From contig NC_008312.1 in NCBI RefSeq assembly GCF_000014265.1, positions 2,400,001-2,432,000 on the forward strand: 32,000 bases of DNA, in the 5' to 3' direction. The notes under the pieces were generated by a model. It was not told the DNA's origin. It searched no databases and worked only from the letters and a program-made list of their open reading frames with translations. The stretch comes from Trichodesmium erythraeum IMS101. Lineage in GTDB: Bacteria > Cyanobacteriota > Cyanobacteriia > Cyanobacteriales > Microcoleaceae. Position 1 is the first letter of the stretch. The number at the start of each line of letters is the position of its first letter. Positions 1 through 28,261 of the stretch are shown here, in pieces. A program made the translations under genes and the position numbers.

Positions 1-650
1 GTTAGTTTATCAGCCCTAATACTGTCACGATATTTTCTAGAAACAGACGCTTTATTTAAACTATTTGCCAAAACTCCAACAGCAGTACCACCAAACTCTA
101 AAGTTCCTAACATTGCCTCTTGATCTATCCCTTTTGCACCCCCAGAAATTACATTAATACCTTCAGACGCACAAACTTTTCCAACTTTTTTTGTATATTC
201 AACTTCTTCTTCATTAATATCACGAGAACCCACTATAGCTAATCCACCCTTTTCCAATAATTCTATATTTCCTACACCATAAATAATTACAGGAGCCAAA
301 TATTGCAGATTCTGTTTCCATTTTATAGGATAATTTTGGTCACTTCTTGTAAGTACCCATAAACCTTGGTTCACCCACTTTTCCAGAGTAATAGCTAAAA
401 TTCCACCTCTTTCCAATAGAGCCACTAACCGCTCATAGTTTAATTTTTTATCATTAATTTTTGGTAGTATATCTAATCCATTTTTACTTAGTAAATATCC
501 TGGTCTAACTTGATTTTTAATTAAAAAATTAGCAACTATATTATACTCAATTAGAGTTAAAGGTTGTGGCTGTATATTTCTATTTTGACCAAAACTAGCA
601 CATAATAATAAAGTCACTTGTGCATCTGAAGATAAAACATGATTAAGCAT
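1..650 (-). CDS. DprA/Smf-like DNA-processing (Rossmann/SLOG) protein; first 216 codons only, the 3' end lies beyond the window start
   Basis: Absent from the supplied ORF track because it is open at the window edge. My reverse-strand translation from the ATG at 650 gives MLNHVLSSDAQVTLLLCASFGQ...NYPIKWKQNLQYLAPVIIYGVGNIELLEKGGLAIVGSRDINEEEVEYTKKVGKVCASEGINVISGGAKGIDQEAMLGTLEFGGTAVGVLANSL... This matches the DprA core pattern (YP..L....P..L...G, IVGSR, SGGA.GID..A, GG.T..VLA). There is no in-frame stop down to base 1. Confidence 0.7.
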   Translation of the reverse strand, partial: MLNHVLSSDAQVTLLLCASFGQNRNIQPQPLTLIEYNIVANFLIKNQVRPGYLLSKNGLDILPKINDKKLNYERLVALLERGGILAITLEKWVNQGLWVLTRSDQNYPIKWKQNLQYLAPVIIYGVGNIELLEKGGLAIVGSRDINEEEVEYTKKVGKVCASEGINVISGGAKGIDQEAMLGTLEFGGTAVGVLANSLNKASVSRKYRDSIRADKL

Positions 651-830
651 TTTTATTGGATAATTTTTGAGCAGGTATCTCTATTTTATTATTTAGCAAA
701 AAAACATAGTTGAAAGGAAATAAATTCACATAACAATATTCAAAAAAAAGAATCTACTTAGGATGTGCTTTCTAAATCTTTTTAAGAACTAGGAGACCCA
801 AACCTAAACCCCTTATACCATTTCACCTAA

Positions 831-978
831 GTCAAAAGTCAAAAGTTAAAAGTTAAAAGTTAAAAGTTAAAAGTTAAAAGTTAAAGTTTAAAAGTTAAAA
901 GTTAAAGTTTAAAAGTTAAAAGTTAAAAGTTAAAAGTTAAAAGTTAAAGTTTAAAAGTTAAAGTTTAAAAGTTAAAGG
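831..978. repeat. Heptanucleotide microsatellite (GTTAAAA)n, about 21 units, with GTCAAAA and GTTAAA+GTTTAAAA variants
   Basis: Read directly: gtcaaaagtcaaaagttaaaagttaaaag... The period is 7, and 6+8 variants keep a 14 bp register. It lies in the spacer upstream of the DprA-like start. Confidence 0.95.
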
Positions 979-1791
979 TTAGGTTTTTCCGGCATAAAAC
1001 TTTGACCCTACAGTAATTTTAGGAAATTATTTGATATCTAAAGTTTTAAACTATTTATAATATTATTTATGACATTATTTTTGACCCTTAGTGTTATAAG
1101 AGTAATTTTTTAACAAAGGGGTAAGTAATCACTATTATTCAGTATAAAATATCAACAAAAGTATATTTGATTTTATACAATAACATAGCTAAAAATTTCT
1201 TCTAGCCTTCATCCATTCATCTTCTCAAATTTTTTTATCAACTTTAATATCAAAGATAAAAAATATACCCTTATAAGTCTCTAACCCCTTCTAAGAAAAA
1301 AAAGAAAGTAAGTAAGTAGAAAAGTTATATTAAACTGACTTAAGTTTGAACATATAATTTATAGAAGAATTAGTTGGATATATTTATGCCTAAAACTTTC
1401 TGCTATAGTTATCAAAAAAATACTAATACTAATTTAATAAACATCTATCATACTAATTTTTTTTGAAGTCAGACTACACATACCTTAACATTTTAGTTTT
1501 TAGACTTACAGCTAATTTTGGACAAATGATGTACAGGGTCAATAGTAAAAATCATGTAATGCAGGTATCTTACCCACGTAGGCGTACCTCATAAACCTCA
1601 AATATGCTGTAATAAATTACTCTTACAAATTTTGTTTAAGTTAATCAAATTTATATTGCACTTTCTTAACTAGAGAAGCACAGGAGTAGGTAGAGACCTT
1701 ACATAAAACCTCCCTAAAACATTTATACAATTAACACGCTTTTGAAATACTAATTATCAAAAAAAACTATTGGTACAATATTAATTACTAA

Positions 1792-2667
1792 ATAATTAAA
1801 ATTTTATCCAAGAATAACATTTTTTTTTAAATTGGCATCAAACTGGTTATTCTCCATACCGAAAACCAGACACTTTTTCCATCAAAAAAATACTCAAGCC
1901 TTTATAGCTTAATACCTTAATATTTTATGCATTCAACATAATTAAAATTTTATCCAAGAATAACATTTTTTTTTAAATTGGCATCAAACTGGTTATTCTC
2001 CATACCGAAAACCAGACACTTTTTCCATCAAAAAAATACTCAAGCCTTTATAGCTTAATACCTTAATATTTTATGCATTCAACATAATTAAAATTTTATC
2101 CAAGAATAACATTTTTTTTTAAATTGGCATCAAACTGGTTATTCTCCATACCGAAAACCAGACACTTTTTCCATCAAAAAAATACTCAAGCCTTTATAGC
2201 TTAATACCTTAATATTTTATGCATTCAACATAATTAAAATTTTATCCAAGAATAACATTTTTTTTTAAATTGGCATCAAACTGGTTATTCTCCATACCGA
2301 AAACCAGACACTTTTTCCATCAAAAAAATACTCAAGCCTTTATAGCTTAATACCTTAATATTTTATGCATTCAACATAATTAAAATTTTATCCAAGAATA
2401 ACATTTTTTTTTAAATTGGCATCAAACTGGTTATTCTCCATACCGAAAACCAGACACTTTTTCCATCAAAAAAATACTCAAGCCTTTATAGCTTAATACC
2501 TTAATATTTTATGCATTCAACATAATTAAAATTTTATCCAAGAATAACATTTTTTTTTAAATTGGCATCAAACTGGTTATTCTCCATACCGAAAACCAGA
2601 CACTTTTTCCATCAAAAAAATACTCAAGCCTTTATAGCTTAATACCTTAATATTTTAAGCATTCAAC
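1792..2667. repeat. Tandem array of six head-to-tail copies of a 146 bp unit, essentially identical
   Basis: The unit start ataattaaaattttatcc recurs at 1792, 1938, 2084, 2230, 2376 and 2522, giving a period of exactly 146. The only difference I saw is tattttaagc versus tattttatgc in the last copy. No unique spacers separate the units, and no ORF of 60 aa or more lies on either strand. Confidence 0.97.
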
Positions 2668-2845
2668 TATTAGCAGTTAGCTCTAAACTTTTCCTAGGTC
2701 ATGCCAAGCAAAAAAATGAAACTTAGCTAATGATATTTTCAGTGTCAAACTTTTAATTCTTCTGGGAGAATAACTCCTCATTCTAGCTAATAACTAATAC
2801 CTAAAAGCTAAATGCTTACCTCCCAACCTCAGTCTTCTTTGTTCC

Positions 2846-4948
2846 TTATTTAAATCTATTTATTGCTAAAGCCAATGGAAAAACTTTACCAGAACCAGCA
2901 TTTCGTAAAAGCGCCGCAACAACAGTAAAAGTCCATCTTGAGTCTACAATATCGTCTACTAAAAATACATTTCCCCTAATTCCCTCCCAATTATAAACTT
3001 TAAAAGCACCATCTAAATTATGAGCTTGTTGGTAACTATTAGTCATGTCTTTTTGTAGTGAAGTCTGACGAATTTTTATAATACATGGAACAAAGGGTAA
3101 ACCTAATTTTTTAGCAAGACGTTGAGCAAAATTAGGAACAAGTTCCGGATGTGTTAAAGAGGGAATACAAGTAACCCAAGTGGGAAAAGGTTGAGGCTGC
3201 CAACGTTGAATCATATCGTATGTAGCTTGAACTAAGCTATCCTCAAAATGATTATCTTTATACTTACCTTTTTCAACAAATTGGCCCCAACCAGCATCAT
3301 TCCAAATAGAAAGCGATCGCCCAATTTCTGCTTGTAAATCTTTAGATATTTTGCCTGTTAAATTATAAGTTAATAAAGCATTCTTCCGCCAGACTTTCCT
3401 CGTCTCAATAATTTGTTCCCTAGTTCGTAAAAATTGTACAGCTTCTGTCACAAACTTTGAGGAAACATTCCCCGGTAAAAGTGGTTTTCCTAAGCAAATA
3501 GCACATTTACCACAAGGGCTAGGATTTGGGTCATCTAATTCTTTTCTCAGAAATTGCATTAAACATTCTTGACTGTGCATATAATCCAACATTCGATCCT
3601 GTTCTTGATGGCGTATTTCATTCAATCTTGCTATTTTTTCTGTGTCCGTTTGATAATTAATTGGGGTAGCATAATACTTTGACTGTATTTTTTTTATTGG
3701 GGATGGAGTTTCGATAGATAATAACTTCAAAACTTTATTTATTTGCCCATTAGTAAGATTCAACTTTTCCTCTAACATTGGAACAGAAAGACCATCTTCA
3801 GCTTGATTTAATGCATCCAAAATTGCCTGATTATGAGCTTCTGGAGGAAAAGCAGTTTTAATAAAATAATTAGTAATTTCTTTATCTTCTTCACCACTTA
3901 GAAGAATACCATAGGCATTTTCTACTGCCCTACCAGCACGACCTACTTGTTGATAGTAATGTACTACAGATCCAGGACGTTGATAATGAATAACAAATCC
4001 TAAATCTGGTTTATCAAAACCCATTCCTAGAGCTACAGTTGCTATTAATGCTTTAATTTCATTATTCAATAATTGCTGTTCTAATTCTTCTTTCTCTTCC
4101 GTATTTTTCTTACTATGATAAGCTGCTACATTTATTCCTTGAGACTTCAACCAATTAGCAACTATTTCCGTATCTCTCACAGTTAAAGTGTAAATAATTC
4201 CACTGCCAGGAATATTAGGTAAATGTTCTGCTAACCATCCTAAACGATCACAATAAGATGGCAAATAAATATTTTGTAATTGGAGGCTATCTCTAGTTAA
4301 TAAACCCCTAAATATTTTCAGATTTGCACCTAGTTGAACAGTAATATCATCCACAACTCGATTATTAGCAGTAGCAGTAGTAGCAAGCACAGGAATATTT
4401 TTTGGTAAGGCTTGTAAAATTCTCGCAATTCTTCGATAATTAGGACGAAAATCATGTCCCCAATCAGAAATACAGTGAGCTTCATCAACTACAAATAAGC
4501 CGATATTTTTAGCTATATAAATTAAAATATTTTCTCGGAAGTTTTCATTAGCTAATCTTTCAGGAGAAATTAATAAAATATCTACTTTTCCTACCATTAA
4601 ATTATTTTCTACTTTTTCCCATTCTTCCTTGTTACTAGAATTAATTGTTTGAGCCCTAATTCCAATTCGTTCGGCAGCAGCAATTTGATTTCGCATTAAT
4701 GCTAAAAGTGGGGAAATTAATAGAGTAATACCCTTACCTTTATCCCTAAGTAAACGAGTAGCTAAAAAATAGACAAAACTTTTACCCCAACCAGTACGTT
4801 GCACAACTAAAAGACGGCTTTGATGTTCCGTAATAGCTGCAATAGCCTCCCATTGACCATCACGAAATTCAGCTGTGGAATTATTTAAAGCCCGCCTTAG
4901 TAATGATAATGCTTCTTTTTGAATCATATTAATTTTTATATTAAACAC
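2846..4948 (-). CDS. RecQ-family DNA helicase fused to a C-terminal ComFC-like / type-I phosphoribosyltransferase-like domain
   Basis: The 700-aa ORF carries RecQ motifs: TGWGKS (Walker A), VDEAHCISDWGHDFRP, ATTATA, YQQVGRAGR and the Cys cluster CGKCAIC. The last ~110 aa read as ComF/PRTase: TCIPS..FAQRLAKKLGLPF..RQTSLQKDM..NLDGAFKV..GNVFLVDDIVDSRWTFTVVAALLRNAG. The track start at 4948 is a GTG. The ATG at 4927 (MIQKEAL...) is the more likely start. Confidence 0.85.
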   Translation of the reverse strand: MFNIKINMIQKEALSLLRRALNNSTAEFRDGQWEAIAAITEHQSRLLVVQRTGWGKSFVYFLATRLLRDKGKGITLLISPLLALMRNQIAAAERIGIRAQTINSSNKEEWEKVENNLMVGKVDILLISPERLANENFRENILIYIAKNIGLFVVDEAHCISDWGHDFRPNYRRIARILQALPKNIPVLATTATANNRVVDDITVQLGANLKIFRGLLTRDSLQLQNIYLPSYCDRLGWLAEHLPNIPGSGIIYTLTVRDTEIVANWLKSQGINVAAYHSKKNTEEKEELEQQLLNNEIKALIATVALGMGFDKPDLGFVIHYQRPGSVVHYYQQVGRAGRAVENAYGILLSGEEDKEITNYFIKTAFPPEAHNQAILDALNQAEDGLSVPMLEEKLNLTNGQINKVLKLLSIETPSPIKKIQSKYYATPINYQTDTEKIARLNEIRHQEQDRMLDYMHSQECLMQFLRKELDDPNPSPCGKCAICLGKPLLPGNVSSKFVTEAVQFLRTREQIIETRKVWRKNALLTYNLTGKISKDLQAEIGRSLSIWNDAGWGQFVEKGKYKDNHFEDSLVQATYDMIQRWQPQPFPTWVTCIPSLTHPELVPNFAQRLAKKLGLPFVPCIIKIRQTSLQKDMTNSYQQAHNLDGAFKVYNWEGIRGNVFLVDDIVDSRWTFTVVAALLRNAGSGKVFPLALAINRFK

Positions 4949-5020: not shown

Positions 5021-5527
5021 GTGATTGCAATTTATCCAGGCAGTTTCGACCCCATTACCTTAGGTCATATAGATATTATAGAAAGAGGCTGCAACCTGTT
5101 TGAAAAAGTAATTGTAGCTGTCCTGCGAAATCAAAGTAAGACCTCTTTATTTACTATTGAGCAGCGTTTGAATCAAATTTGTCATTCCACAAAACACCTG
5201 CTTAATGTAGAGGTAGCCAGTTTTGATGGTTTAGCGGTAAACTATGCAAAAATGCAACAGGCTAAAGTCCTAATTCGAGGTCTACGAGTTCTTTCAGATT
5301 TTGAAAAAGAATTACAGATGGCCCATACTAATAAAACCTTGTCACCTGAAATAGAGACAGTTTTTTTAGCTACCTCTAATGAATATAGTTTTTTAAGTAG
5401 TAGTGTAGTTAAAGAAATTGCTGTTTTTGGTGGCTCAGTAGATCATCTCGTTCCCCAGCACATTGCTATTGATATTTATAAATGTTACGACAAAACTCAG
5501 CCAAAGCCAATATTGAACCAGAGGTAA
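5021..5527 (+). CDS. coaD: Phosphopantetheine adenylyltransferase
   Basis: The N-terminus [23 protein letters not shown] is the classic PPAT nucleotidyltransferase signature, and the 168-aa length is typical. The start codon is GTG. It is divergent from the helicase gene. Confidence 0.92.
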
Positions 5528-6150
5528 ATGGGCAAAATGTCGAGAGTCAACCTGCCAGTGGTTCCCCTGGAGTAGATATCCAGCGAGAACTGAATAGGCT
5601 GGAAGAGATTATTCTTGATAGTCCTAGAATACCTTTCGTGGGGCGCACTTTAATAGATGAAGAACAGTTATTAGACCAACTAGATATTGTACGCCTGAAT
5701 TTACCAGTTGCTTTTCAGGAAGCTGAAATGATTGTTCGCCATAAAGATGATATATTTCAAGAAGCTGAACTTTACGCTGAAGAAATTATTGAAAATGCAG
5801 AACAACGAGCTTCTCAAATCTTAAATGAAATGGGCCTTGTACAGCAGGCTAAATTAGAAGCAGATCAACTTAGAAACCAAGTTCAGCTAGACTGTGAAGC
5901 AATTCAACAAGCTACTATCACTGAAATTGAACAAATTCGTTATCAAGCTCAACAAGAACTTGAAGAAATGAGAGCTAGAGCGATCGCCGAGTGTGATGAA
6001 ATTCAGAATGGAGCTGATGACTATGCTGACCATGTACTTGATAGTATTGAACAGCAGTTAACAAATATGCTGCAAGTTATTCGTAATGGCCGTCAACAAC
6101 TAGGAGGAGATGGAACTTTAGGAACTCCCTTAAATCATACTAATGACTAA
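5482..6150 (+). CDS. Conserved coiled-coil protein (DivIVA-like / ATP-synthase-b-like helical repeats); function unknown
   Basis: The 222-aa ORF has a long heptad-like helical region rich in E, Q and A ([36 protein letters not shown]...). It overlaps the end of coaD by 46 nt. I saw no alternative in-frame ATG or GTG before residue ~83, so the start is uncertain. Confidence 0.6.
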
Positions 6151-7660
6151 TAGCATAAGGATAACTTAGTTGACAATTTACAAGTTTTACAGTCCCCAAT
6201 AACTCAGTTATTCTCAGTCAAATAAGTCAAAAATTAAATTTATTCACAAGATCTAAAAATTTCTTAATGACCGTTTAAGTTAATTGATAATAGCCCTAAT
6301 TATGTCCTGCAGGAAGTAAACCAAGCATATAAATACTCTTAAAACAAATACTCAGGACAAATATCATTGACTGAATCAAAAAATAAAATCAAATAAAATC
6401 AAATAAAATAGGTTCTCTCAACTCATGTTAACTTATATCAAATTTAAGTAATCTAAACCTATTCGGACTCAAAATAATAAATATCTATTCTATCCTATTT
6501 ATCCTACATTCCGCACAATAAAATTTAGTCCCTCACACCCTCCCTCAGCTATTATGCCTAAGGGAGGTTTATTGCTATCCCTAGCTCTGATGCCAGTTCA
6601 TATTTCATTAGATACCCTACAATTTTTTGAAGGAAGGTAAAACTTAATCTTAGTCAAACTCCTTTCTTAGTTTTCCCGTTTTTTTGTCTCAGATACTCAC
6701 CCATAACTAATTAATTAATACAATAATAACATATATATTCAAAAAAATAAAACAAACAAAAATACCAAATTCTAGAACTATTCTTTAAACCAACTTTTTT
6801 TGTAAAACATAATCATAAAAATCGGAATAATATTAACTTATTCAATAGCATTATTTTAGCTAATTTTATAAGTAAAAAACTATATCTATTAATTTCGATA
6901 TGAGTCTCAAATTCTTAGTTTATATCTATTAGTTTCGAGATAATTATCAATTTATTCCGCTGCAAAGTTAGCATAAAAAGTTGAGTATAAGTTAACAGCT
7001 TGCTTACTTCCTGAACATTTTTTAACATAGTACCGTTTATTTATGTCCGACTAATTACTAAATCTAGTTTAGACACGAAGTTAGTTGATACACCAAAGAT
7101 TATTTATTATTAAGACTAAAAAAACAAAACTAGAAAACAGACTCAAATTAAAGATACACGTACTTTAGCCTCAAAAAAATATCAATCATAAATTAACAGC
7201 AGTTTTAGGTATTTTAAGAGCATCAACATAATTATCTTATTTAGACTAACCTTATTGATACTTTTTTCTCCCAGAAAATTTATAAATCACACTATGAAAC
7301 TGTATTCATAATTATTCTCATTTAACTATCTTCTTAGAGCTTTCTGATTAAATATAAAATCACTAATATACAAAGATTTATTTTTTTTGCCTTGAAAAAA
7401 TACCTAGTTTTTCCTCCTTCAAGCTCATGCATATTAGCCTTTTACCCACCGCCATGGCAGAAAGCAGCAGGGGCAAATATATCCAACTACATCCTCTATA
7501 AATTTTCTGTTTCTCTCTACAGATATTACATGCAAAGTTCTTAGTTACTCCCGCGCACAAGCAAAAAAAAGTGGCGCAACAGCCCCTCAAAAATCAATTC
7601 CCAGAAGAAAGCTCAGTAGAAATATCAGCCCCTAAAAGGCAGAAAATATGTCACATTAAC

Positions 7661-7828
7661 TAGATTTCCTATTTTGAACATATTCTTTAGTCTTAGATCA
7701 ATAATCAATCACTTTATTATATATCGGGTCTATAAATAATTTTCTAGATTTCCTATTTTGAACATATTCTTTAGTCTTAGATCAATAATCAATCAATTTA
7801 TTATATATCGGGCCTATAAATAATTTTC
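7661..7828. repeat. Direct tandem duplication, 2 x 84 bp (82/84 identical), spanning the stop codon of the rca-like gene
   Basis: tagatttcctattttgaacatattctttag... starts at 7661 and again at 7745. Copy 2 contains the last 9 codons plus the stop of the 7801..9072 ORF. Copy 1 repeats them downstream of the gene. Confidence 0.95.
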
Positions 7829-9072
7829 TCAACTATCCGTCGCTTCACATTCCCATCAATACCAATCAAACGAACATAATCATTTTGATGTTTAACTAAA
7901 CAATTTTCTACAGCATTTATCACCTCTTTTACTTCCCCATTCTCTATTTTTCCACAACTTTTCCATGAACCAGTTTTATATCTACGTTTATCTGCATATT
8001 CCATCCCAATTTTTCCACCATCTTCGAGAATTTTTTGTATTTTTTCCCTCACTTCTGAACTAAGATTACTACTTTTAATACTATGATTAATCCGATTTGC
8101 ATTTAACTTATTTTCCGTAGTTACTTCGGGAAATAATCCATTAGAATTTGGCGTAATATTTTCTCGTTGACTTGTTTTAAAAACACCAAACAATCGAGAT
8201 TTATTATATTCTTCTACTAAACCCAATTCTCGAATACGTTCTTGTTCTCCAACCATAATTTTTCCATACTCTAGAAGACGGGAAACATTAAAAGTAGGTT
8301 GAGGAAAATCGGGAATCTTTTCTACAGAATTTACTACCCGCCTAGAAATTTTTTCTATTCCTACTTGGTGAATAAAATCACGAATTTGTTCATCATATAT
8401 CCGACTTCGTAAGGCACTAAAAAAATCGATAGCCTGGTCAGAAAATTCATCTATTAAATTATCAATATCTCCTGTAGAAAGTTCATCTGTTTTAAATATG
8501 CTACCTACTATGCCAACTCTATCTTCTCTATTTGGTTCCCAATAAAATTTCTCCATTCGACCATCTCTAATTAAAGGCGCATAAAGAGTAGAAAAATCAT
8601 TTCCAGTCACAATAATTGGTATTCGATGTAAGGGAGTTTCATCGTAGCTGCCTGGTAATTGTACATTTGTAGGGTTATCAGCAATATTCATTAAAGTAGC
8701 ATTTACTAATTGAGTATTTACCGTATATTGAGTACCCCCATCAAATCTACCAGCACCTGCATCTAAGTCATTAATAAATAAAGCACACATTCGACCTTGA
8801 ACTTTAACTTTTTCTGACGCTTCTCTATAACGTAGACGTAATAAACGTGCAGGATCTCCCGCATCTTTACTTTCTAATTCTCCACCAGATATTGTGACAG
8901 GTTCTATTCCCATTTTCTCAAAAACTAATTGGCATTGAAATGTTTTTCCTTCTCCTTTTCGTCCGTGTATTCCTATTATTAAAGGTACCCTTATTCTGGG
9001 GATTTCTAAGAAGTTTTTGGTAATATGTACTGCTAGTTTATCTATGAATCTAGGTGATATATAATATGGCAT
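7801..9072 (-). CDS. rca: Rubisco activase-like AAA+ protein with a C-terminal RbcS-like (SSUL) domain
   Basis: MPYYISPRFIDKLAVHITKNF...PLIIGIHGRKGEGKTFQCQLVFEKMGIEP..GELES..AG.PA.L.R.RYREA is the Rca AAA+ N-terminus and Walker A. The C-terminal ~90 aa (IGMEYADKRRYKTGSWKSC...VRLIGIDGNVKRRIVEKIIYRP) resembles the Rubisco small subunit. Confidence 0.88.
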   Translation of the reverse strand: MPYYISPRFIDKLAVHITKNFLEIPRIRVPLIIGIHGRKGEGKTFQCQLVFEKMGIEPVTISGGELESKDAGDPARLLRLRYREASEKVKVQGRMCALFINDLDAGAGRFDGGTQYTVNTQLVNATLMNIADNPTNVQLPGSYDETPLHRIPIIVTGNDFSTLYAPLIRDGRMEKFYWEPNREDRVGIVGSIFKTDELSTGDIDNLIDEFSDQAIDFFSALRSRIYDEQIRDFIHQVGIEKISRRVVNSVEKIPDFPQPTFNVSRLLEYGKIMVGEQERIRELGLVEEYNKSRLFGVFKTSQRENITPNSNGLFPEVTTENKLNANRINHSIKSSNLSSEVREKIQKILEDGGKIGMEYADKRRYKTGSWKSCGKIENGEVKEVINAVENCLVKHQNDYVRLIGIDGNVKRRIVEKIIYRPDI

Positions 9073-9322
9073 TTATTTTAATTTTTTTAGTATAAATAAT
9101 GGTTTGATACAGATTTAAAACAGATAACAATTAAGCACAAGGAAAGAATATCTAGATAATTACTCAGAAAAATTAGAAATAATCCTGTACATTTAGGTTT
9201 TGATTTGAAATAAGTAACTATACTACTGCAATATAATGAATCATTAAGCTTTGAGTTGATCATACTACTCATATACAATTAATGCAGTAAGGTATTTAAT
9301 TAATATAAATGAATTAGTACCT

Positions 9323-9380
9323 ATCTTCAGGAATTTTTCCCAGTCACAATACAGAGATATTTTATTTTGTGAATCTCCCA
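9323..9380. repeat. Copy 1 of a 58 bp dispersed repeat containing the inverted repeat TCACAA-N19-TTGTGA
   Basis: atcttcaggaatttttcccagtcacaatacagagatattttattttgtgaatctccca aligns without gaps to 9597..9654, identical at 51 of 58 positions. Confidence 0.85.
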
Positions 9381-9596
9381 TAAATAAATAACTGTTTTTT
9401 CTTGATCAAATCTTTCTATCTATACCTCCTCAGCAGAATATACCAAGAACTGAATTTTCATTTTATGAAGCTCATTCTGGTTAATTAGATTTGCTCTTCC
9501 ATTATCACAATTTTTGTGATATAACTAATTATGTAACTATATACATATATGTATGACTTTTTATTCAATATAGTTAACTAGCTCAGAGAACATCAA

Positions 9597-9654
9597 ATCT
9601 TCAGGAATTTTTCCCCGTCACGATACAGAAATATTTCATCTTGTGAAGCTTCCA
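9597..9654. repeat. Copy 2 of the 58 bp dispersed repeat
   Basis: atcttcaggaatttttccccgtcacgatacagaaatatttcatcttgtgaagcttcca. Both copies lie upstream of the rca-like gene. Confidence 0.85.
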
Positions 9655-9950
9655 GAGATTAATATAAGGTAGGTATTTAAACCAATCTTAATTAGATGAA
9701 AAATTGCCCCATGGGTGCAATTTCTCTGTAAATTAGATAAGTCTGCTCTGTAGTATAGTTTTGAGAGTGAGAGAAAGAAATCAATTCCACCCATGCGATC
9801 GCGAATGTGGTAAAAAAGAAAGTCAATGTAAAAAGTACCAAATGAGTAGTATAAAATGTAAAGTTGTTGAACTGTTCAAACAAACTAAAAAACCCAATTA
9901 ATTTAGTCAAAACTGGGTTTTTACAGAAAAATCAATAAGTATAAAAATAA

Positions 9951-10151
9951 TTAAAGAGGCTGTCTAGAAATCAACTTTTCAAAATGAGCTTGAGTTTGTT
10001 GCAACATTTGCTCACGACCATCTTTTATTTGATTAAGAGAAGGAACTAAATTACGAGCATGTAAAGTCATGTGAAATTGTAAATCAGCCACATATTCACT
10101 AACATCTTGATGTAAAGAACAAGATGGATACTTTTTAATTTCTGAATTCAA
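9951..10151 (-). CDS. Hypothetical small protein (66 aa); weak call
   Basis: Track ORF with a TTG start and no recognisable motifs. Its composition is less AT-skewed than neighbouring spurious ORFs. A G9 run on the coding strand lies 8 nt upstream of the start. Confidence 0.25.
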   Translation of the reverse strand: MNSEIKKYPSCSLHQDVSEYVADLQFHMTLHARNLVPSLNQIKDGREQMLQQTQAHFEKLISRQPL

Positions 10152-10249
10152 AGTTTTATCCCCCCCCCTAAATTATTTGAGTTTGTTTATGATCACAAAA
10201 AGTACCATAGAAATTCTTCCTCTGTTGAAGTTTAGCAATGAAGCTTAAT

Positions 10250-10540
10250 ATTTTTCATTGACATCCTCCATGCACTAAAGTGAGAGAACTTGCAACATCA
10301 CAGAGAAAGTTTCCTCTTTCTTTAAGTCGGCTTACTTAACTTGAGTTTCCCCATCTAAACAAAGACCAATTTCTCGAACTTGTTTTACTTTCCCCGTGCA
10401 CCAAATAAGCTGATATTTTCCTTAATGCTGAAATGAGGATGTTTTTTTGCTACTTTCTCGTCTCTCTTTGCAACATATAGCTTTGTATTTAACTCAGCTT
10501 CGTACTTAGTATTTTTTGAACTTAAGAATCACCTTTTTTT
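10250..10540 (-). pseudogene. Frame-shifted ORF fragments, possibly the C-terminal relic of an IS200/IS605-family TnpB-type gene
   Basis: My reverse-strand translation gives ..KYEAELNTKLYVAKRDEKVAKK in one frame. After a frame shift it gives ILISALRKISAYLVHGESKTSS..*..LTLVHGGCQ*. This loosely resembles the (C..CG..)DRD.NAA.NIL...GH tail of TnpB proteins. The match is from memory only, and the region has several stops. Confidence 0.25.
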
Positions 10541-11250
10541 CCAGTAGTCTTAGCTTGAAAGTTGCCATAAAATCTTTATATAGCTACCCAAGCTCTTTCC
10601 CAGTGAACAAACCTGGCCATATAATTTAGTTGTTTTGCCCAAGAAAAATCAGGGGGAGATGAGCTAATAAATATGCAATATAAGTTTAGGCAACCAATAC
10701 GACTAAAAATTGTTCTACCTATCTATGCTATAATAACAATTCCGTAAGTACAAATAGCGATATCTAACAGGTTCTACTAATTCTGGATGCCTTATCTTTT
10801 CATTTCATAGATGAATATAGATAAATATAAAAAGCTTGATTTTAGTATTAAGCAATAAAATTATAATCAATCAAACCTGCATATAAAGCTAATAGCATTA
10901 AAAACCCTTCAATAATTATAAGGATAAGGCTTGAGACCAATTCCCATCCGTTAATACTATACTTAGGCAAAACTTCATAAATTTAAGTAATTAACACGGA
11001 CTGAATAACTTGATGGCTAAATTGAGGCAAATTAATGTTAATTATTTTTATATTGTACCGAGCGAGATTGTATGCAACCCCTCTTTCCCTCCTAGGAAAG
11101 CTTAGGGACTAATATTACTGCACCGTCAGAGTAAGAGCTAAGTCCCCGACTAAAAATTTACGTTCAAAAGTTTTTGATGAATGGTACTAGACCCCAATTA
11201 TCGGAAAAAAAAATTATTCAAACAGTAAAATAACTATATCAAAAGGAATT

Positions 11251-11288
11251 GGGAAATGTTAAAAACTCTTCAAACACAAACATTTCCC
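11251..11288 (-). terminator. Candidate intrinsic terminator of the ndhAIGE operon
   Basis: A perfect 10 bp stem pairs gggaaatgtt (11251-11260) with aacatttccc (11279-11288) around an 18 nt loop. It starts 10 nt past the ndhE stop. On the minus strand it is followed by AAUUCCUUUU, so the U-tract is weak. Confidence 0.45.
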
Positions 11289-11298
11289 AGTGCTATGA

Positions 11299-13023: not shown

Positions 13024-15283
13024 GGTTTTGCTTTATAAAACTTAGAGTGACAATTTAAACTTTATTTGATGTTAGAGATAAATTTTGTTAGTTAACATCC
13101 TACTAATATTAAATTTTTACAACAACTATGCTTTGCTTCTTAACTCAGTATGTTGTCAATTTATCTTAACCAGAACTTACACAAAGGAAGTATATAGAGT
13201 GTAAATATATAAAACAATTACCAAAAATACACTATATGTAGTAGTACTCTGTAATTACTATTAAGGTTGGTTGTTTTGCAGTGCTCTCCTTCAAAGAAGC
13301 GCCCTATGGGAAAACTAATCAATATTACTAATCAATATTGAGGTTTAACACATAGATATGTTAACGTATCTTTCCTAAATAATTAAAGGTTAACCTTCAC
13401 CTCAGCCTAGAAGCATAGGGAGATTAAAGGCCCGAAGCTGCGATGCGGTTTAATATTTCTTATGCTGCTGCACCCACCCCAACCTATTCCCCCATTTCCT
13501 CGGTAGGAACGAAGCAAGATGGTTGATGCTTGCCCAGTGTGTGCATTTAATGTCTTAGGCTACCCGCTTTAGACTAAAATATTTGTTGGTGCATTTTCCC
13601 AAGCGGTCCTACTTACTATTCACTTTTAAGACAGAACTATTCCCTGACTCAAATTTCTAACTTTCCTTTTCTTCACCAACTAGAGCAAATTTGAGAAGTA
13701 GGTTCTCACCTCCTAATTACTCTAAAATTATGACTATATTTTTCTGCAATTCCATTAAAAATGTTCCTATGGGTCGCTAACCTAGATCACTAACCCACCC
13801 CTAATTCCTCCTGGGAGGCTAGCAAGAAGGGTTGCTTACTTTTTTGACTCCATATACATATCATACTTCTAAAACAATTTTTTGGAAGTTAGCTGAATTT
13901 CAACAGATAATTTATCTAGAAAATCAATTTTTATATTCTTAAGTTTAGGGTGCAATTTAGGAAGTTTCACTCGTGGATTTTTATACCTTTTAGATCCTTG
14001 AGTTTTTTTGAGATAATAATTTACTTAACTTTCGTGCTTCGTAACTTTTATATTTTACTGACATAACCTAGGAAAAAATCTTACTTTTTGATTTATTTCT
14101 TTATATAGTTTAAGAGTATCAATTTTTTGACCATGTACAGACATTGGATTAAGGCATCCTTAAGGTAGCAAAAGTTTTAATTCCTAAATAATTACTATTG
14201 TAAATTATCAGTTTTAGGCAAAATTTATGGTAAAGTTTTTAATACAAAAGTCAGAAAATATCTATTAGCTGAATTTTGGCAGCATTTTTAAAATTACTGC
14301 TTTATAATCTGTCAGATATTTAGGTTTAGTAATTACTTCCCTAGACAAAAATATTTTTAGTTTTCCTACTTTAGGATTGCTAATAACTTTATTTTAAACA
14401 ACTTTGAACCTTTATTTTGTAAATTTTGCAGGTTATTTTAAATTTTTAATCCATAAATTCAGGTACGATTACAAGTTTACCTTTTCTCTTATCTTTTATT
14501 AATTGAAAAAGTTTTTGAGCAACGAAAAGTTGTGGTTACTGAGAAACATATTTCTGTAGTATTCCGAAGGGAAATGCACCTAGGGTTTAAATCATTTAAA
14601 GATTGCTGCAATAGTAATTTAGAAACTTTTAATAACCATTCTCTATCTTCGGTGTTTTTAGCTTAAATAATCAACTATTTTTGTAGTGAGAGAGTTAACA
14701 GGCTTATTCTCTAGTAATTTATACTTTTCATAGTTAGAAATCTAGGCTATTACGTTAGAGAAAACGGACACAACCAAATAGTTTTGTGCTCTCGGTATTT
14801 TTTTCCTGTTTTTGGAGAGATACGATAGTTAAATAATTGCGAGTTATAATCTTAAACTTTAATAGCTTTTTAGCGTAACATATTTATTAGAATAAAATAA
14901 ACCAAAAACTCAGCCCAGAAGGGCAAAACTTTAGATACAATCTTTCGAGCAATAATTTAAAAAGCAGACAAGTATTGCTTAGACCTACTCCTGAGCAGAA
15001 AAATCTGTTTCTGATGATGGACTAGATACCCTAATTTCAATAAAAAACTTAATAGTAGTAACACAGAGTTTACTAGGGCTAAATTTAAGAGAATAAATGG
15101 CCAAGTTTATCTAACTAAATCTGCTTAAACATTACCTATAAGATGGGGTAGGCAACTACCAGTTGGCTGTATACCAACTAAAATTACAGAAAATTTCTTC
15201 AGGCAGTTGCGCGAGAAAAATCAACCTAGATTTTGAGGTTTAGGAATTCCTCGTTGTTCCTTATGCGCAATCTTAGGAGGATA

Positions 15284-19307: not shown

Positions 19308-19811
19308 TTACAGTCCGATAACATATTTTTGCCATTCTTTATTCATACCACTTTTAACATGTTTAGTTAATTCAAAGTAAAGACCACTGCGAGGTTTTCG
19401 AGGAGGGCAGTCCAAAATCATATTAGCTTCTTTTGGGGTCCGACTTCCTTTTTGTACATTGCAACGGACACAAGCCGTTACGAGGTTTTCCCAAGTATCA
19501 CCACCACCACGCGATCGCGGTATTACGTGATCTAAAGTTAAATCATCACCCATATAACCACAGTATTGACAAGAATGACCATCTCGGTGGAAAACATTTC
19601 GACGCGTCAAAGGAATATCTTTGTACGGAACTCGGATATAATAGCGCAGTCGGATGACTGTAGGTAAGGGAATATCTGGGAGAAGATATATTCCCTTATG
19701 TTCAATTTGCTCCGCTTTACCTTTGAGCAACAAGACGATCGCTCGTCGCCAACTCGTGATATTGAGCGGTTCATAAGAAGCGTTCAACACTAAAACATTG
19801 GCCATTGACAT
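19308..19811 (-). CDS. HNH endonuclease family protein (McrA-like small HNH)
   Basis: CQYCGY..LTLDHVIPRSRGG..TWENLVTACVRCNVQKG is a complete HNH/zinc-finger motif. The protein is 167 aa. Confidence 0.85.
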   Translation of the reverse strand: MSMANVLVLNASYEPLNITSWRRAIVLLLKGKAEQIEHKGIYLLPDIPLPTVIRLRYYIRVPYKDIPLTRRNVFHRDGHSCQYCGYMGDDLTLDHVIPRSRGGGDTWENLVTACVRCNVQKGSRTPKEANMILDCPPRKPRSGLYFELTKHVKSGMNKEWQKYVIGL

Positions 19812-24734: not shown

Positions 24735-27700
24735 CTAATATTTATCTTGATTTTGTTTTGATTCATTTTTCTCATTTAAAAATATTTGATAGTTTTTCAG
24801 AACTGTTTGAGTGTTGGGATGTTCTTCACCTAATGATTGTGTAAATATTTCAATAGCTTGTAGGTACAAAGGTTCAGCTGCTTCGTATTTTCCTTGTTCA
24901 CGATATAATTCTGCCAGGTTGTTGAGGTCTCTTGCAAGAGATGGATGATTTTCAGGGAGGGCGATTTTGTCGATTTCTATTGTTTGTAGATACAATTGTT
25001 CTGCAGCTTCGTATTTTCCTTGTGCATGATATAATCCTGCCAGGTTGTTGAGGTGTGTGGCTAATTGTGGATGATTTTCTGGGAGGGCGATTTTGTCGAT
25101 TTCTATTGCTTGTAGAAACAAAGGTTCTGCAGCTTCGTATTTTCCTTGTGAATGATATAATAATGCCAGGTTGTTGAGGTCTGTGGCAAGAGATGGATGA
25201 TTTTCAGGGAGGGCGATTTTGTCGATTTCTATTGCTTGTAGGAACAAAGGTTCTGCAGCTTCGTATTTTCCTTGTTCACGATATAATTCTGCCAGGTTGT
25301 TGAGGTCTCTTGCAAGAGATGGATGATTTTCAGGGAGGGCGATTTTGTCGATTTCTATTGCTTGTAGGAACAAAGGTTCTGCAGCTTCGTATTTTCCTTG
25401 TAACTTATATAATGCTGCCAGGTTGTTGAGGCCGCTGGCTATATTTGGATGATTTTCAGGGAGGGCGATTTTGTGGATTTCTATTACTTGTAGGAACAAA
25501 GGTTCTGCTGCTTCGTATTTTCCTTGTACACGATATAAATTTGCCAGGTTGTTGAGGTGTGTGGCAATACCTGGATGATTTTCAGGGAGGGCGATTTTGT
25601 GGATTTCTATTGCTTGTAGGTACAAAGGTTCTGCTGCTTCGTATTTTCCTTGTGCACGATATAAATTTGCCAGGTTGTTGAGGTGTGTGGCACGTTGTGG
25701 ATGATTTTCAGGGAGGGCGATTTTGTCGATTTCTATTGCTTGTAGGTACAAAGGTTCTGCAGCTTCGTATTTTCCTTGTAACTTATATAATGCTGCCAGG
25801 TTGTTGAGGCCGCTGGCTATATTTGGATGATTTTCAGGGAGGGCGATTTTGTCGATTTCTATTGCTTGTAGGAACAAAGGTTCTGCAGCTTCGTATTTTC
25901 CTTGTGAATGATATAATAATGCCAGGTTGTTGAGGTCTGTGGCAAGAGATGGATGATTTTCAGGGAGGGCGATTTTGTCGATTTCTATTGCTTGTAGGAA
26001 CAAAGGTTCTGCAGCTTCGTATTTTCCTTGTAACTTATATAATGCTGCCAGGTTGTTGAGGCCGCTGGCTATATTTGGATGATTTTCAGGGAGGGCGATT
26101 TTGTGGATTTCTATTACTTGTAGGAACAAAGGTTCTGCTGCTTCGTATTTTCCTTGTACACGATATAAATTTGCCAGGTTGTTGAGGTGTGTGGCAATAC
26201 CTGGATGATTTTCAGGGAGGGCAATTTTGTGGATTTCTATTGCTTGTAGGTACAATTGTTCAGCTGCTTCGTATTTTCCTTGTGCACGATATAATGATGC
26301 CAGGTTGTTGTAAATAGCTGCAATATCAGAATTATTTTTATCTAAACGTTTTTCAGCTATTTCTTTACCTTTCTCTAACCAAGGTTGTGCCAGTGGGTAC
26401 AATCCTTGACCTTGATAAAATGAGCCTAAGCTTGTAAAAGGTATAATCAAATCATCATCGCTCAAATATTCAGCCAAATTGTCTGCTATTTCTGTAATAT
26501 GAGGTATATCAATCTCAACTTCTTTAACTTGTTCTACTGTAATGTCATTGTTATAAGGAATTTTCTCTGCCGCACCTACAATTACCCGACAAAACTGAGA
26601 CTTCAACTGTTCTACTTCCTTCATTGCATTCAACTTATCTTGAAAATATCGACGTACTAATTGATGCAATTCATAAGTTCCCTGTGTTGTCTTTTGAATT
26701 AAATTTAAATCTAACAAAGTATCTTCCCTAATATCTTCCCAAGTTCTTGAATCTAATACATCAACTTTTTTTGGAGGCATCAATAATAACCATAAACGTG
26801 AAAAAGTAGGAAACCACCTTTGTATAATTCCTTTCTCCTGACTTTCATCTTTAGACAAACATTTTTCCACCAAATTCCAAGGTATAGGAGCCAATGCAAA
26901 AAGACTCAACAAACAGCCCAAATACCTTCCCCTTTCATCTAATTCATTCCAACTCAATTCAAAAGCAGCGGCTACTCCACGCTGTGCTGTCATTTCTCCC
27001 TGTGGTGGGTTCTGTAGCACCGAGAAATTTAAAGCTTGTTTTTCCAACTCTTGTATCATTCTTTCCAATGTCCATTCAGACCGCCTCTTCAGAAATCGCC
27101 CCACCAACTCTAATCCCAAGGGTAAATATCCCAACCATTCACAAAGTTGCTTTGCTTCCTCTATTTGTGTCCCTAAACGAGAATTGCCAATTAAGACCTC
27201 TAATAATTCTAAAGCAGAATCTTCATCCAAAACCTCCAAACGTAACTGTGAAAAAGATTCTGACAACCAATATTTACGAGTAGTAATTAATAATTTAAAA
27301 CGTTGTTTTTGTGGAGGTAAATACTGCTCAATTTCTTCATATTTATTAACATCATCTAGAACAATTAAAACATCTCCAGGTGGTTGCCAATTTGACCAAC
27401 AAAAGCTAATTCTTTCTTCTAAACTCCAATCTTCAGCCGGAAATAATCCTAATTGAGTTTGAGCAAAGCTTAATAACTGTTCTCCCACACTTCTTTCCCT
27501 AACATTTATCCAACAAATACCACCAGGATAATTCAACTCCTTTTCAGATAAAAGAGAATATTGAAGTGCTAATTCTGTTTTCCCAACGCCTGCCATACCT
27601 GTAACTACTGCTGTAATAGATACACGCTCTTTTTCCTGAAGTTGTTCATGTAAATTTTCGATATCTTTATCTCGACCAACAAATTTAACAGCACCAGTTC

Positions 27701-27902
27701 GTAATATATTTAAATTATTAGGAAACTCTGCTGGCTCACCCTTCCATGAAACATTTTTTGTGTCATTAATAATTGTCTTAGCAAAAGTTGAATTTACAAT
27801 ATTGCCTGAATTAACACCAACACCATGAGTCTCCTTAATATCAACTTTATCCTCAAAATTATCTGACATATTAACCTTGTTTATGATTTGGATTTTTGCC
27901 AA
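24735..27902 (-). CDS. NB-ARC (STAND) NTPase with a C-terminal array of 12 near-identical 42-aa TPRs; NLR-like
   Basis: NB-ARC motifs are GMAGVGKTELA (Walker A), VLIVLDDV (Walker B), KLLITTR and GYLPLGLELVG (GLPL). These are followed by repeats of NHP..A..LNNLA.LY..QGKYEAAEPL.LQAIEI.KIALPE. The likely true start is the ATG at 27869 (MSDNFEDKV...), by homology to the N-terminus of the upstream ORF. Confidence 0.9.
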   Translation of the reverse strand: MAKIQIINKVNMSDNFEDKVDIKETHGVGVNSGNIVNSTFAKTIINDTKNVSWKGEPAEFPNNLNILRTGAVKFVGRDKDIENLHEQLQEKERVSITAVVTGMAGVGKTELALQYSLLSEKELNYPGGICWINVRERSVGEQLLSFAQTQLGLFPAEDWSLEERISFCWSNWQPPGDVLIVLDDVNKYEEIEQYLPPQKQRFKLLITTRKYWLSESFSQLRLEVLDEDSALELLEVLIGNSRLGTQIEEAKQLCEWLGYLPLGLELVGRFLKRRSEWTLERMIQELEKQALNFSVLQNPPQGEMTAQRGVAAAFELSWNELDERGRYLGCLLSLFALAPIPWNLVEKCLSKDESQEKGIIQRWFPTFSRLWLLLMPPKKVDVLDSRTWEDIREDTLLDLNLIQKTTQGTYELHQLVRRYFQDKLNAMKEVEQLKSQFCRVIVGAAEKIPYNNDITVEQVKEVEIDIPHITEIADNLAEYLSDDDLIIPFTSLGSFYQGQGLYPLAQPWLEKGKEIAEKRLDKNNSDIAAIYNNLASLYRAQGKYEAAEQLYLQAIEIHKIALPENHPGIATHLNNLANLYRVQGKYEAAEPLFLQVIEIHKIALPENHPNIASGLNNLAALYKLQGKYEAAEPLFLQAIEIDKIALPENHPSLATDLNNLALLYHSQGKYEAAEPLFLQAIEIDKIALPENHPNIASGLNNLAALYKLQGKYEAAEPLYLQAIEIDKIALPENHPQRATHLNNLANLYRAQGKYEAAEPLYLQAIEIHKIALPENHPGIATHLNNLANLYRVQGKYEAAEPLFLQVIEIHKIALPENHPNIASGLNNLAALYKLQGKYEAAEPLFLQAIEIDKIALPENHPSLARDLNNLAELYREQGKYEAAEPLFLQAIEIDKIALPENHPSLATDLNNLALLYHSQGKYEAAEPLFLQAIEIDKIALPENHPQLATHLNNLAGLYHAQGKYEAAEQLYLQTIEIDKIALPENHPSLARDLNNLAELYREQGKYEAAEPLYLQAIEIFTQSLGEEHPNTQTVLKNYQIFLNEKNESKQNQDKY
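24825..26336. repeat. Intragenic tandem array, 12 x 126 bp (the TPR units), including a 5-unit-offset internal duplication
   Basis: gggagggcgatttt recurs at 24955, 25081, 25207 and onward with period 126. The 280 bp at 25313-25592 are identical to 25943-26222, an offset of 630 = 5 x 126. Confidence 0.95.
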
Positions 27903-28261
27903 TCTTCCAAAGCTGCAATAACAAAGCTACTAGCAGGATGATTAAGTAATTGTTCAACAGCAGCAACTCCACCAGCTTTTATAGCGCTAAATATTTTTTG
28001 TGCCTTAGTCGGATGATTATCAATATGTGTAATTACCTCTGTAGCAATTTTCATTCTGTCCATTGTTGTTTCTGACGGATAAGTTTTTTCTAGTTGCTCT
28101 AGTAATTCTTGAATATCTCTTGCTGCTTCTGTCAAGTTTTGTTGTTGAGATTCATAAATTGTCATTGTCTTAGCAAATTTTGAGGTATTAATATTTCCCT
28201 TGTTAATACCTACACCATAAACTTCTTGAATAGAAACTTTATCCCCGGAATTTTCTGACAT
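27881..28261 (-). CDS. Small helical protein sharing the N-terminal ~35-aa motif of the downstream NB-ARC/TPR protein
   Basis: The 126-aa ORF begins MSENSGDKVSIQEVYGVGINKGNINTSKFAKTMTI, against MSDNFEDKVDIKETHGVGVNSGNIVNSTFAKTIIN in the NTPase (20/35 identical). Its stop lies 11 nt upstream of the NTPase ATG at 27869. The remainder is predicted helical (..AARDIQELLEQLEKTYP...AIKAGGVAAVEQLLNHPASSFVIAALEDWQ). Confidence 0.7.
   Translation of the reverse strand: MSENSGDKVSIQEVYGVGINKGNINTSKFAKTMTIYESQQQNLTEAARDIQELLEQLEKTYPSETTMDRMKIATEVITHIDNHPTKAQKIFSAIKAGGVAAVEQLLNHPASSFVIAALEDWQKSKS

Follow-up and report, generated by a model that had tools for sequence, protein, structure and literature searches.

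The window analysed here, a stretch of 32,000 nucleotides of Trichodesmium erythraeum IMS101 (NC_008312.1, positions 2,400,001 to 2,432,000), holds at its left edge a gene pair, psyrT–psyrA, which very probably represents the two-gene RqlHI (= PsyrTA) module in IMS101; we put the probability at about 0.85. The first gene, rqlH or psyrT, codes for a helicase of RecQ-like type that bears a phosphoribosyltransferase (PRTase)-like domain at its C-terminus, and the second, rqlI or psyrA, for a DprA/SLOG-like protein. The RqlHI locus of this organism is already known, down to the exact site, and no claim to novelty is made: Russell and Mulvey (2015; PMC4670107) list it among the rqlH-rqlI ortholog pairs and describe the two IMS101 genes as "separated by an unannotated 2196 bp sequence". 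The helicase–PRTase fusion is the usual form of the RqlH/PsyrT family. What is unusual here is only the expanded, repeat-bearing spacer between the genes and a duplicated helix-turn-helix (HTH) module in the antitoxin, both of which are minor and lineage-specific. The features of the locus are collected in Table 1.

Table 1. Features of the psyrT–psyrA locus of T. erythraeum IMS101, in window coordinates
Feature	Position	Strand	Basis or remark
rqlI / psyrA, DprA/SLOG-like protein of 515 aa (first 216 aa)	1..650	(-)	ATG at 650; runs off the window
psyrT–psyrA spacer, 2195 nt	651..2845		non-coding, lineage-specific expansion
Heptamer array, ~22 copies	829..981		unit AAGTTAA (+ strand) or TTAACTT (gene strand)
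Six tandem copies of a 146-bp unit, 99% identical (99-100%)	1792..2667		
rqlH / psyrT, RecQ-like helicase with C-terminal PRTase-like domain	2846..4948	(-)	stop codon 2846..2848
C-terminal ComF/type I PRTase-like domain	2849..3256	(-)	Pfam Pribosyltran; family profile against PDB; Foldseek
PRPP-binding loop VFLVDDIVDSRWT	2930..2968	(-)	read from the sequence; PRPP loop alignment to PRPP synthetase
RecQ-type four-cysteine zinc module (…ECLM…PCGKCAIC…)	3491..3625	(-)	RecQ_Zn_bind 1.3e-4, aa 442-486
RqlH-specific linker, ~100 aa	3626..3925	(-)	stretch between the Helicase_C and RecQ_Zn_bind matches
SF2 ATPase lobe 2 (Helicase_C)	3926..4216	(-)	Pfam Helicase_C 7.1e-18, aa 245-341
SF2 ATPase lobe 1 (DEAD/DEAH)	4346..4861	(-)	Pfam DEAD 1.5e-26, aa 30-201

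The two genes and their products

Profiles of PADLOC and Pfam and the equivalog and subfamily models of NCBIfam were applied to both proteins of the window. The helicase matches the PADLOC profile PsyrT (PDLC03928) with an E-value of 1.5e-301 and 999.8 bits, residues 10-697 aligning to profile positions 5-684 of 689, and the fragment of the partner that lies in the window matches PsyrA with an E-value of 8.4e-77 and 256.9 bits (residues 6-216, profile positions 3-213 of 398). An earlier note, made from the sequence alone, had named PsyrTA as a candidate, and the two matches bear this out. The note had also recognised the three kinds of domain correctly, and the sequence features it described are confirmed. 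The ShosA profile on the same fragment stays far under PsyrA (E 2.8e-19, 67.6 bits), and no match of the 700-aa helicase product to ShosT occurs in the best 25 of 40 PADLOC matches. PsyrTA (Sberro 2013; Millman 2022) and RqlH-RqlI are the same system.

Delimited mechanically, the open reading frame (ORF) of the helicase begins with a GTG at 4948 and comes to 700 aa; public annotation starts it at the ATG at 4927, for a product of 693 aa. The 693-aa product is 100% identical to the protein annotated as "ATP-dependent DNA helicase RecQ" of T. erythraeum IMS101, while an exact look-up of the 700-aa product from the GTG start returned no match in public records. The RecQ-type core and zinc cluster that the earlier note had read from this ORF are recovered by the Pfam matches to DEAD, Helicase_C and RecQ_Zn_bind, the last of them below the curated Pfam cut-off, and by four nearly invariant cysteines (C455, C472, C475 and C478 in the numbering of the 693-aa product) across the family alignment. 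Lobe 1 of the ATPase carries motif I as TGWGKS and motif II as VDEAHCISDWGHDFR, with VDEAH present, and in a 50-member family alignment K49, E149 and H151 do not vary and D148 hardly does (at least 90%; same numbering). The RecQ cores in the PDB align to residues 20-335 only (E 1e-55 to 1e-57); no solved RqlH/PsyrT structure was found there, and the matches of the full protein span the helicase core only.

Within the RecQ family, to which the protein belongs by the NCBIfam subfamily model recQ_fam (261 bits, above the cut-off of 219.8), a classical RecQ is ruled out by the equivalog models, as TIGR01389 reaches 305.9 bits against a cut-off of 640.2 and PRK11057 reaches 224 against 1015. No Pfam match to HRDC was found in the helicase protein. 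The order of its domains agrees with the published definition of RqlH, namely a RecQ-like ATPase, a specific linker of ~90 aa, a zinc module with four cysteines and, at the C-terminus, a ComF/PRTase-like domain, with no HRDC (Ordonez, Unciuleac and Shuman 2012; PMC3378886). An exhaustive HMMER search of 1.84 billion representatives gave 9131 proteins at E <= 1e-30; of the 150 best, at 36-60% identity, almost every one aligns over query positions ~2-689 and is ~680-720 aa long.

The assignment of the C-terminal domain as PRTase-like is weak from the single sequence, and sound at the level of the family. The Pfam Pribosyltran match is below its cut-off (1.9e-3, 18 bits, residues 607-686), and a single-sequence PDB search with the C-terminal 204 aa gave no match. 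A profile built from 26 diverse C-terminal domains, on the other hand, finds PRPP synthetase (5e-7), HGPRT (1e-5) and PurF (2e-4) in the PDB. The AlphaFold model of the last 205 aa is confident in its core only, with a mean predicted local distance difference test score (pLDDT) of 66; Foldseek on this model returns the PRTase domain of PurF as best match (E 9e-5, probability 1.0), with HGPRT and XPRT next. The predicted type I PRTase fold, which the earlier note had also proposed, is thus supported by the profile search against the PDB and by Foldseek on the model.

The motif for binding 5-phosphoribosyl 1-pyrophosphate (PRPP) that had been recognized in this domain is real, although it occupies 2930..2968 and not 2924..2968 as first placed. 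Its reading DSRW had been taken as a sign of altered or lost catalysis. The loop VDDIVDSRWT of the window, however, conforms to the pattern VDDxVDS[G/R/K]WT, which is found in most of the 80 representatives checked. Since most of them have the same form of the loop, DSRW is the family consensus and represents no degeneration of the IMS101 copy. Many family members read DSGWT, which is near the canonical PRTase loop, and D170 and D171 of the C-terminal domain are invariant in family alignment A1.

The ORF at the window edge was described earlier as having a DprA/SLOG core, in agreement with the Pfam matches to DNA_processg_A (3.4e-25) and SLOG cluster4 (6.6e-10). Its full length has now been recovered beyond the window: by exact cluster look-up, the psyrA product of IMS101 (ABG50850.1/WP_011611226.1) is a protein of 515 aa, with 100% identity in the 216 aa that the window shows. 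The ortholog in a Trichodesmium ALOHA metagenome-assembled genome (MAG; L007, 13464-15008) is likewise of 515 aa and 100% identical over these 216 aa, and matches PsyrA with an E-value of 1e-131 over profile positions 3-396 of 398; the Dapis gene lies at 12855-14393 of L010. A canonical dprA was considered and ruled out, with 65.7 bits against a cut-off of 191.15 for TIGR00732 and 46.5 against 495 for PRK10736, from a half-length query on which PsyrA reaches 257 bits. PsyrA measures 513-515 aa in Trichodesmium and Dapis, as compared to 412-426 aa in three other cyanobacterial genomes with gene calls (Nostoc, Coleofasciculus and Gomphosphaeria), and the ~100 additional aa come from a C-terminal HTH-like module (IYEKVLPIIL…) that is duplicated in tandem.

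The closest described counterpart is RqlH-RqlI of E. coli F11, with which the IMS101 pair shares the same two proteins, their order and strand, the domain architecture and the DIVD PRPP loop. In E. coli F11, RqlH alone is genotoxic, its toxicity requires the PRTase domain and the DIVD loop of that domain, and RqlI, the DprA-like product of the downstream gene, both neutralises RqlH and co-immunoprecipitates with it (PMC4670107). The IMS101 copy differs in its gap of 2195 nt, where an overlap or a few nt is usual, in the length of PsyrA (515 versus ~400 aa, through the duplicated C-terminal HTH module), and in its housekeeping, apparently vertically inherited context. RqlH of M. smegmatis (MSMEG_5935) is of similar size to the IMS101 protein, both being ~690 aa, and the two have in common the RecQ-like ATPase, the linker, the zinc module and the ComF/PRTase-like C-domain, as well as the lack of HRDC. 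The mycobacterial and other actinobacterial RqlH proteins differ in having no RqlI partner; the sampled actinobacterial homologs are ~42-45% identical to the IMS101 protein. The M. smegmatis enzyme was characterized as a 3'-5' helicase in the study that also noted homologs in Cyanobacteria (PMC3378886). With E. coli RecQ (PDB 1OYW) the IMS101 protein shares the superfamily 2 (SF2) ATPase core and the zinc module, but it lacks HRDC and has in addition the ~100-aa linker and the C-terminal PRTase-like domain.

RqlHI was equated with PsyrTA by Millman et al. (2022), who reported anti-phage activity of a bacterial homolog pair and described PsyrTA and ShosTA alike as a PRTase toxin with a DprA-like antitoxin; later ShosTA papers cite only Russell and Mulvey for PsyrT. 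The IMS101 pair and ShosTA accordingly share a PRPP-binding, PRTase-type toxin domain and a DprA/SLOG-like antitoxin, the ShosTA toxin leading to DNA damage and filamentation. ShosT has no helicase, however, and the partner in IMS101 scores 68 bits with ShosA versus 257 bits with PsyrA.

Gene order, inheritance and proposed action of the pair

At the IMS101 locus psyrT lies upstream of psyrA on the same strand with no gene between them, as in the published pairs (PMC4670107). The survey on which the wider comparison is based scanned one genome per species for psyrT and then searched the listed loci, which are mostly non-cyanobacterial, for PsyrA with tblastn; the cyanobacterial context was sampled through four exact-protein look-ups. 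The order psyrT then psyrA holds in ~36 of the 37 listed loci that have both genes. The exception is a Chloroflexota MAG (L045, ~5022-5882), in which the DprA-like match lies upstream of psyrT and not downstream. Outside Trichodesmium and Dapis, 31 of 34 listed pairs are spaced by -8 to +32 nt, the other three being a pair at 98 nt, one at 1154 nt (a Rhodothermales MAG, L052 8076-9231) and a reversed one. In other cyanobacteria the pair is tightly coupled: the gap is 6 nt in Nostoc NIES-2111 and in Caldora, 15 nt in Coleofasciculus PCC 7420 and 6-18 nt in Gomphosphaeria, by the start codon chosen, and it widens to 760 nt in Dapis and to 1381 and 1756 nt in two other Trichodesmium assemblies.

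The tight coupling that is typical of the family is therefore not seen at the IMS101 locus, and the earlier remark that a repeat-filled spacer of 2.2 kb is atypical for a toxin–antitoxin (TA) pair is well founded. The published description of the family, nevertheless, already allows intergenic gaps of more than 2 kb (PMC4670107). A directly downstream psyrA was found in the listed loci of Proteobacteria, Desulfobacterota, Acidobacteriota, Chloroflexota and Cyanobacteria and in a few Actinomycetota MAGs (Acidimicrobiia and relatives). In Streptomyces, in the rest of the cultured actinomycetes sampled and in most other Actinomycetota MAGs, psyrT stands without psyrA within ~6 kb. This survey reproduces the distribution published in PMC4670107.

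By analogy with the E. coli pair, in which this has been shown, RqlI/PsyrA, a DprA/SLOG-like protein with a C-terminal HTH region, would bind and neutralise RqlH. PsyrA would hold PsyrT inactive until infection or DNA stress lifts the inhibition, and the PRTase domain of the freed PsyrT, tethered to its helicase, might then damage DNA or nucleotide metabolism such that phage replication stops. The toxic E. coli RqlH causes SOS induction and filamentation, and mutation of the DIVD loop abolishes this effect (PMC4670107); the M. smegmatis RqlH is a 3'-5' single-stranded DNA (ssDNA) translocase and helicase (PMC3378886). In Trichodesmium and Dapis, non-conserved AT-rich filler bearing tandem repeats has driven the two genes, which normally overlap or almost abut, 0.76-2.2 kb from each other. 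With a gap of 2.2 kb, psyrA would be expressed either on a long read-through transcript or under its own promoter.

Several observations weigh against the assignment as a toxin–antitoxin module. The functional evidence on the pair is confined to E. coli F11 and the donor system of Millman et al. The gene order coaD – Scy-like – psyrT – psyrA – DUF58 – FeThRed_B is common to Trichodesmium and Dapis, which indicates vertical inheritance, and the neighbourhood is not a defence island, the wider window being of housekeeping character with coaD, a Rubisco activase-like gene, ndhA/I/G/E, citrate synthase, alanine racemase and RNase H. Between cyanobacterial orders the psyrT orthologs share ~70% identity, a high value for a defence gene. 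The RqlH helicase is not obligatorily a toxin, because the sampled actinobacterial loci have no RqlI within ~6 kb. Finally, the 2.2 kb gap makes co-translation impossible and leaves stoichiometric co-expression uncertain.

Some of these observations also speak for an alternative reading, in which the pair has been domesticated for housekeeping, RqlH acting mainly as a RecQ-like repair or recombination helicase and RqlI as a regulator or ssDNA-binding partner, rather than the two forming an abortive-infection TA system. The identity of ~70% extends over the full length of the protein in Nostocales, Oscillatoriales and Chroococcales-type genomes, the synteny kept between Trichodesmium and Dapis is with housekeeping genes, and no defence genes adjoin the pair. 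Moreover, the M. smegmatis RqlH was characterised as a repair-type helicase, and the mycobacteria with RqlH have no classical RecQ (PMC3378886). The sampled actinobacterial loci have no antitoxin gene nearby. Against this, a published inventory lists for T. erythraeum one E. coli-like and one cyanobacterial-type recQ, of which one, or neither, may correspond to psyrT, and since two recQ types are listed, psyrT is not the sole RecQ-family gene of the organism. The flanks, furthermore, are not conserved between cyanobacterial orders, the genes that flank the Nostoc, Coleofasciculus and Gomphosphaeria pairs being unrelated to each other. The PRPP loop with the toxic DIVD motif is fully conserved, and the homologs of other bacteria act as a TA and defence pair.

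The selection data also speak to this reading. The comparison of Trichodesmium with Dapis gives dN/dS values of 0.29 (psyrT) and 0.35 (psyrA), compared to 0.08 each for the flanking coaD and Scy-like genes. In the sequence, the catalytic and PRPP-loop residues and both ORFs are intact, and both genes, with values below 1, are under purifying selection and appear functional. Their evolution is 3-4 times faster than that of the housekeeping neighbours, which fits an accessory or defence gene. On balance, a mainly housekeeping role is unlikely, although it is the foremost alternative. Somewhat more doubtful still is a variant restricted to Trichodesmium and Dapis, according to which the pair, with its variable spacer of 0.76-2.2 kb, the duplicated HTH module of its antitoxin and its vertically inherited housekeeping setting, has become uncoupled there, with the genes perhaps regulated independently. 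This would fit a TA or defence module that has been domesticated to chromosomal DNA maintenance, possibly with a spacer-derived transcript in control.

It is worth mentioning here that in Coleofasciculus PCC 7420 (L093 11792-13808) a gene for an AAA_15/AAA_21 ATPase and an ORF of 220 aa come after the pair, and a NACHT protein is encoded nearby. Such a setting would be defence-island-like, unlike that in Trichodesmium.

The repeat-bearing spacer

The spacer contains no ORF of more than 43 aa, no Rfam match at permissive or gathering thresholds, no tRNA and no terminator-like site. A transposon or a group II intron was considered as its content and rejected, in view of the lack of an ORF, of an Rfam intron match and of flanking long inverted repeats. 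The two repeat arrays are its most conspicuous elements. The heptamer array, which resembles the short tandem heptamer repeats (STRR) reported in filamentous cyanobacteria, is shorter in related strains, and a related run of CAAAAGT/TAAAAGT heptamers opens the otherwise unrelated spacer of Dapis (L010 12093-12134). The 146-bp unit is present as a single copy in the Trichodesmium ALOHA MAG (L007) and is not arrayed in another sister assembly (L008), a difference in which short-read collapse is possible; a 38-mer of the repeat gave 0 matches in JGI metagenome contigs. The short-read contigs with the exact IMS101 helicase all end within ~1.4 kb downstream of the gene, close to the array, and none of them spans the spacer. 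The 146-bp array is probably a variable-number repeat that breaks assemblies.

The spacer of Dapis (760 nt) is not alignable to that of Trichodesmium, and the 146-bp unit, as assembled, is not arrayed in the sister assemblies. The IMS101 spacer is therefore regarded as lineage-specific, fast-evolving and non-conserved AT-rich filler. This is consistent with the T. erythraeum genome, of which only ~60% is protein-coding and in which tandem repeats are abundant (PMC4143802).

Alternatively, the spacer could have a function: the 146-nt array, or some other portion, would encode an RNA of regulatory or antitoxin-like kind, or would supply a separate promoter region, and so rewire the control of the pair. 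Such a role is suggested by the fact that T. erythraeum highly transcribes many non-coding RNAs derived from tandem repeats (PMC4143802), by the position of the array exactly between toxin and antitoxin, and by the lack of a terminator-like site noted above. However, the 146-nt unit, folded on both strands, has no excess RNA structure (z-scores of -0.85 and -0.67), the spacer has no Rfam match, and promoter-like sites in it are no commoner than in shuffled sequence (27 versus 25±5), the terminator scan likewise giving a count like that of shuffled sequence. Together with the single copy of the unit in the sister assembly and the lack of conservation in Dapis, these results make a functional spacer improbable.

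Remaining alternatives, other features of the window and significance

The three kinds of domain found at the locus also occur in natural transformation, and the pair could be imagined as a paralogous transformation module in which a ComFA-like helicase, a ComFC-like PRTase and DprA act on incoming ssDNA. The analogy exists at the domain level, it was raised as speculation in PMC4670107, and it was a similarity to ComF, at the level of sequence, that first drew attention to the C-domain of RqlH (PMC3378886). The details do not follow it: the partner fails the dprA equivalog models TIGR00732 and PRK10736, and the helicase, placed in the RecQ family by recQ_fam (261 bits), has no match to a ComFA-type model. 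The closest solved folds of the C-terminal domain are PurF, HGPRT and PRPP synthetase, with no ComFC among the matches listed in either PDB search, and no competence genes were found near the pair in the window. ComFC itself, a stand-alone protein of ~200-250 aa that has a zinc finger at its N-terminus together with a PRTase domain and is set in a com context, was ruled out, the domain being helicase-fused here and com genes lacking nearby. Nothing was found in support of the competence-like ssDNA handler put forward in the earlier note, and we consider this reading very improbable.

The other proposal of that note, a new and not yet characterised hybrid in which the PsyrTA helicase and the ShosTA PRTase toxin have merged into one polypeptide, can practically be dismissed: a RecQ-like helicase and a PRTase-like domain are both present and the partner also matches ShosA weakly, but the PsyrT profile itself has 689 positions and is covered from end to end, the best 150 representatives are nearly all full-length, the partner clearly prefers PsyrA, and the fusion is the defining PsyrT/RqlH architecture, published in 2012 and 2015 (PMC3378886, PMC4670107).

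Elsewhere in the window, a protein of 1055 aa with NB-ARC and TPR domains (STAND-type) is encoded at 24735-27902 (-), its TPR region arising from a 126-bp repeat present 11.6 times; a STAND NTPase of signalling or defence type is a possibility. A 126-aa ORF without Pfam match at 27881-28261 (-) overlaps the start of this gene. A stand-alone HNH endonuclease ORF of 167 aa lies at 19308-19811 (-), with long ORF-free sequence on both sides. An 84-bp direct duplication, 97% identical, at 7660-7829 overlaps the Rubisco-activase-like gene (7801-9072, minus strand) at its 3' end. Between the housekeeping genes there are ORF-free stretches of 1.6-2.3 kb (6151-7800, 9073-11298 and 13024-15283) with no Rfam or tRNA matches, in keeping with the low coding density that has been described for T. 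erythraeum.

Returning to the assignment as RqlHI/PsyrTA, its significance beyond annotation is little. The IMS101 genes that are labelled "RecQ" and "conserved hypothetical/DprA" should read RqlH/PsyrT and RqlI/PsyrA, respectively. The main question for the family concerns the chemistry of the helicase-tethered PRTase domain, and for this the IMS101 locus gives no special handle. Of modest interest are the strong conservation of the pair, often in tightly coupled form, across filamentous cyanobacteria, and the fact that Trichodesmium shows a separation of 2 kb to be tolerated by the pair.

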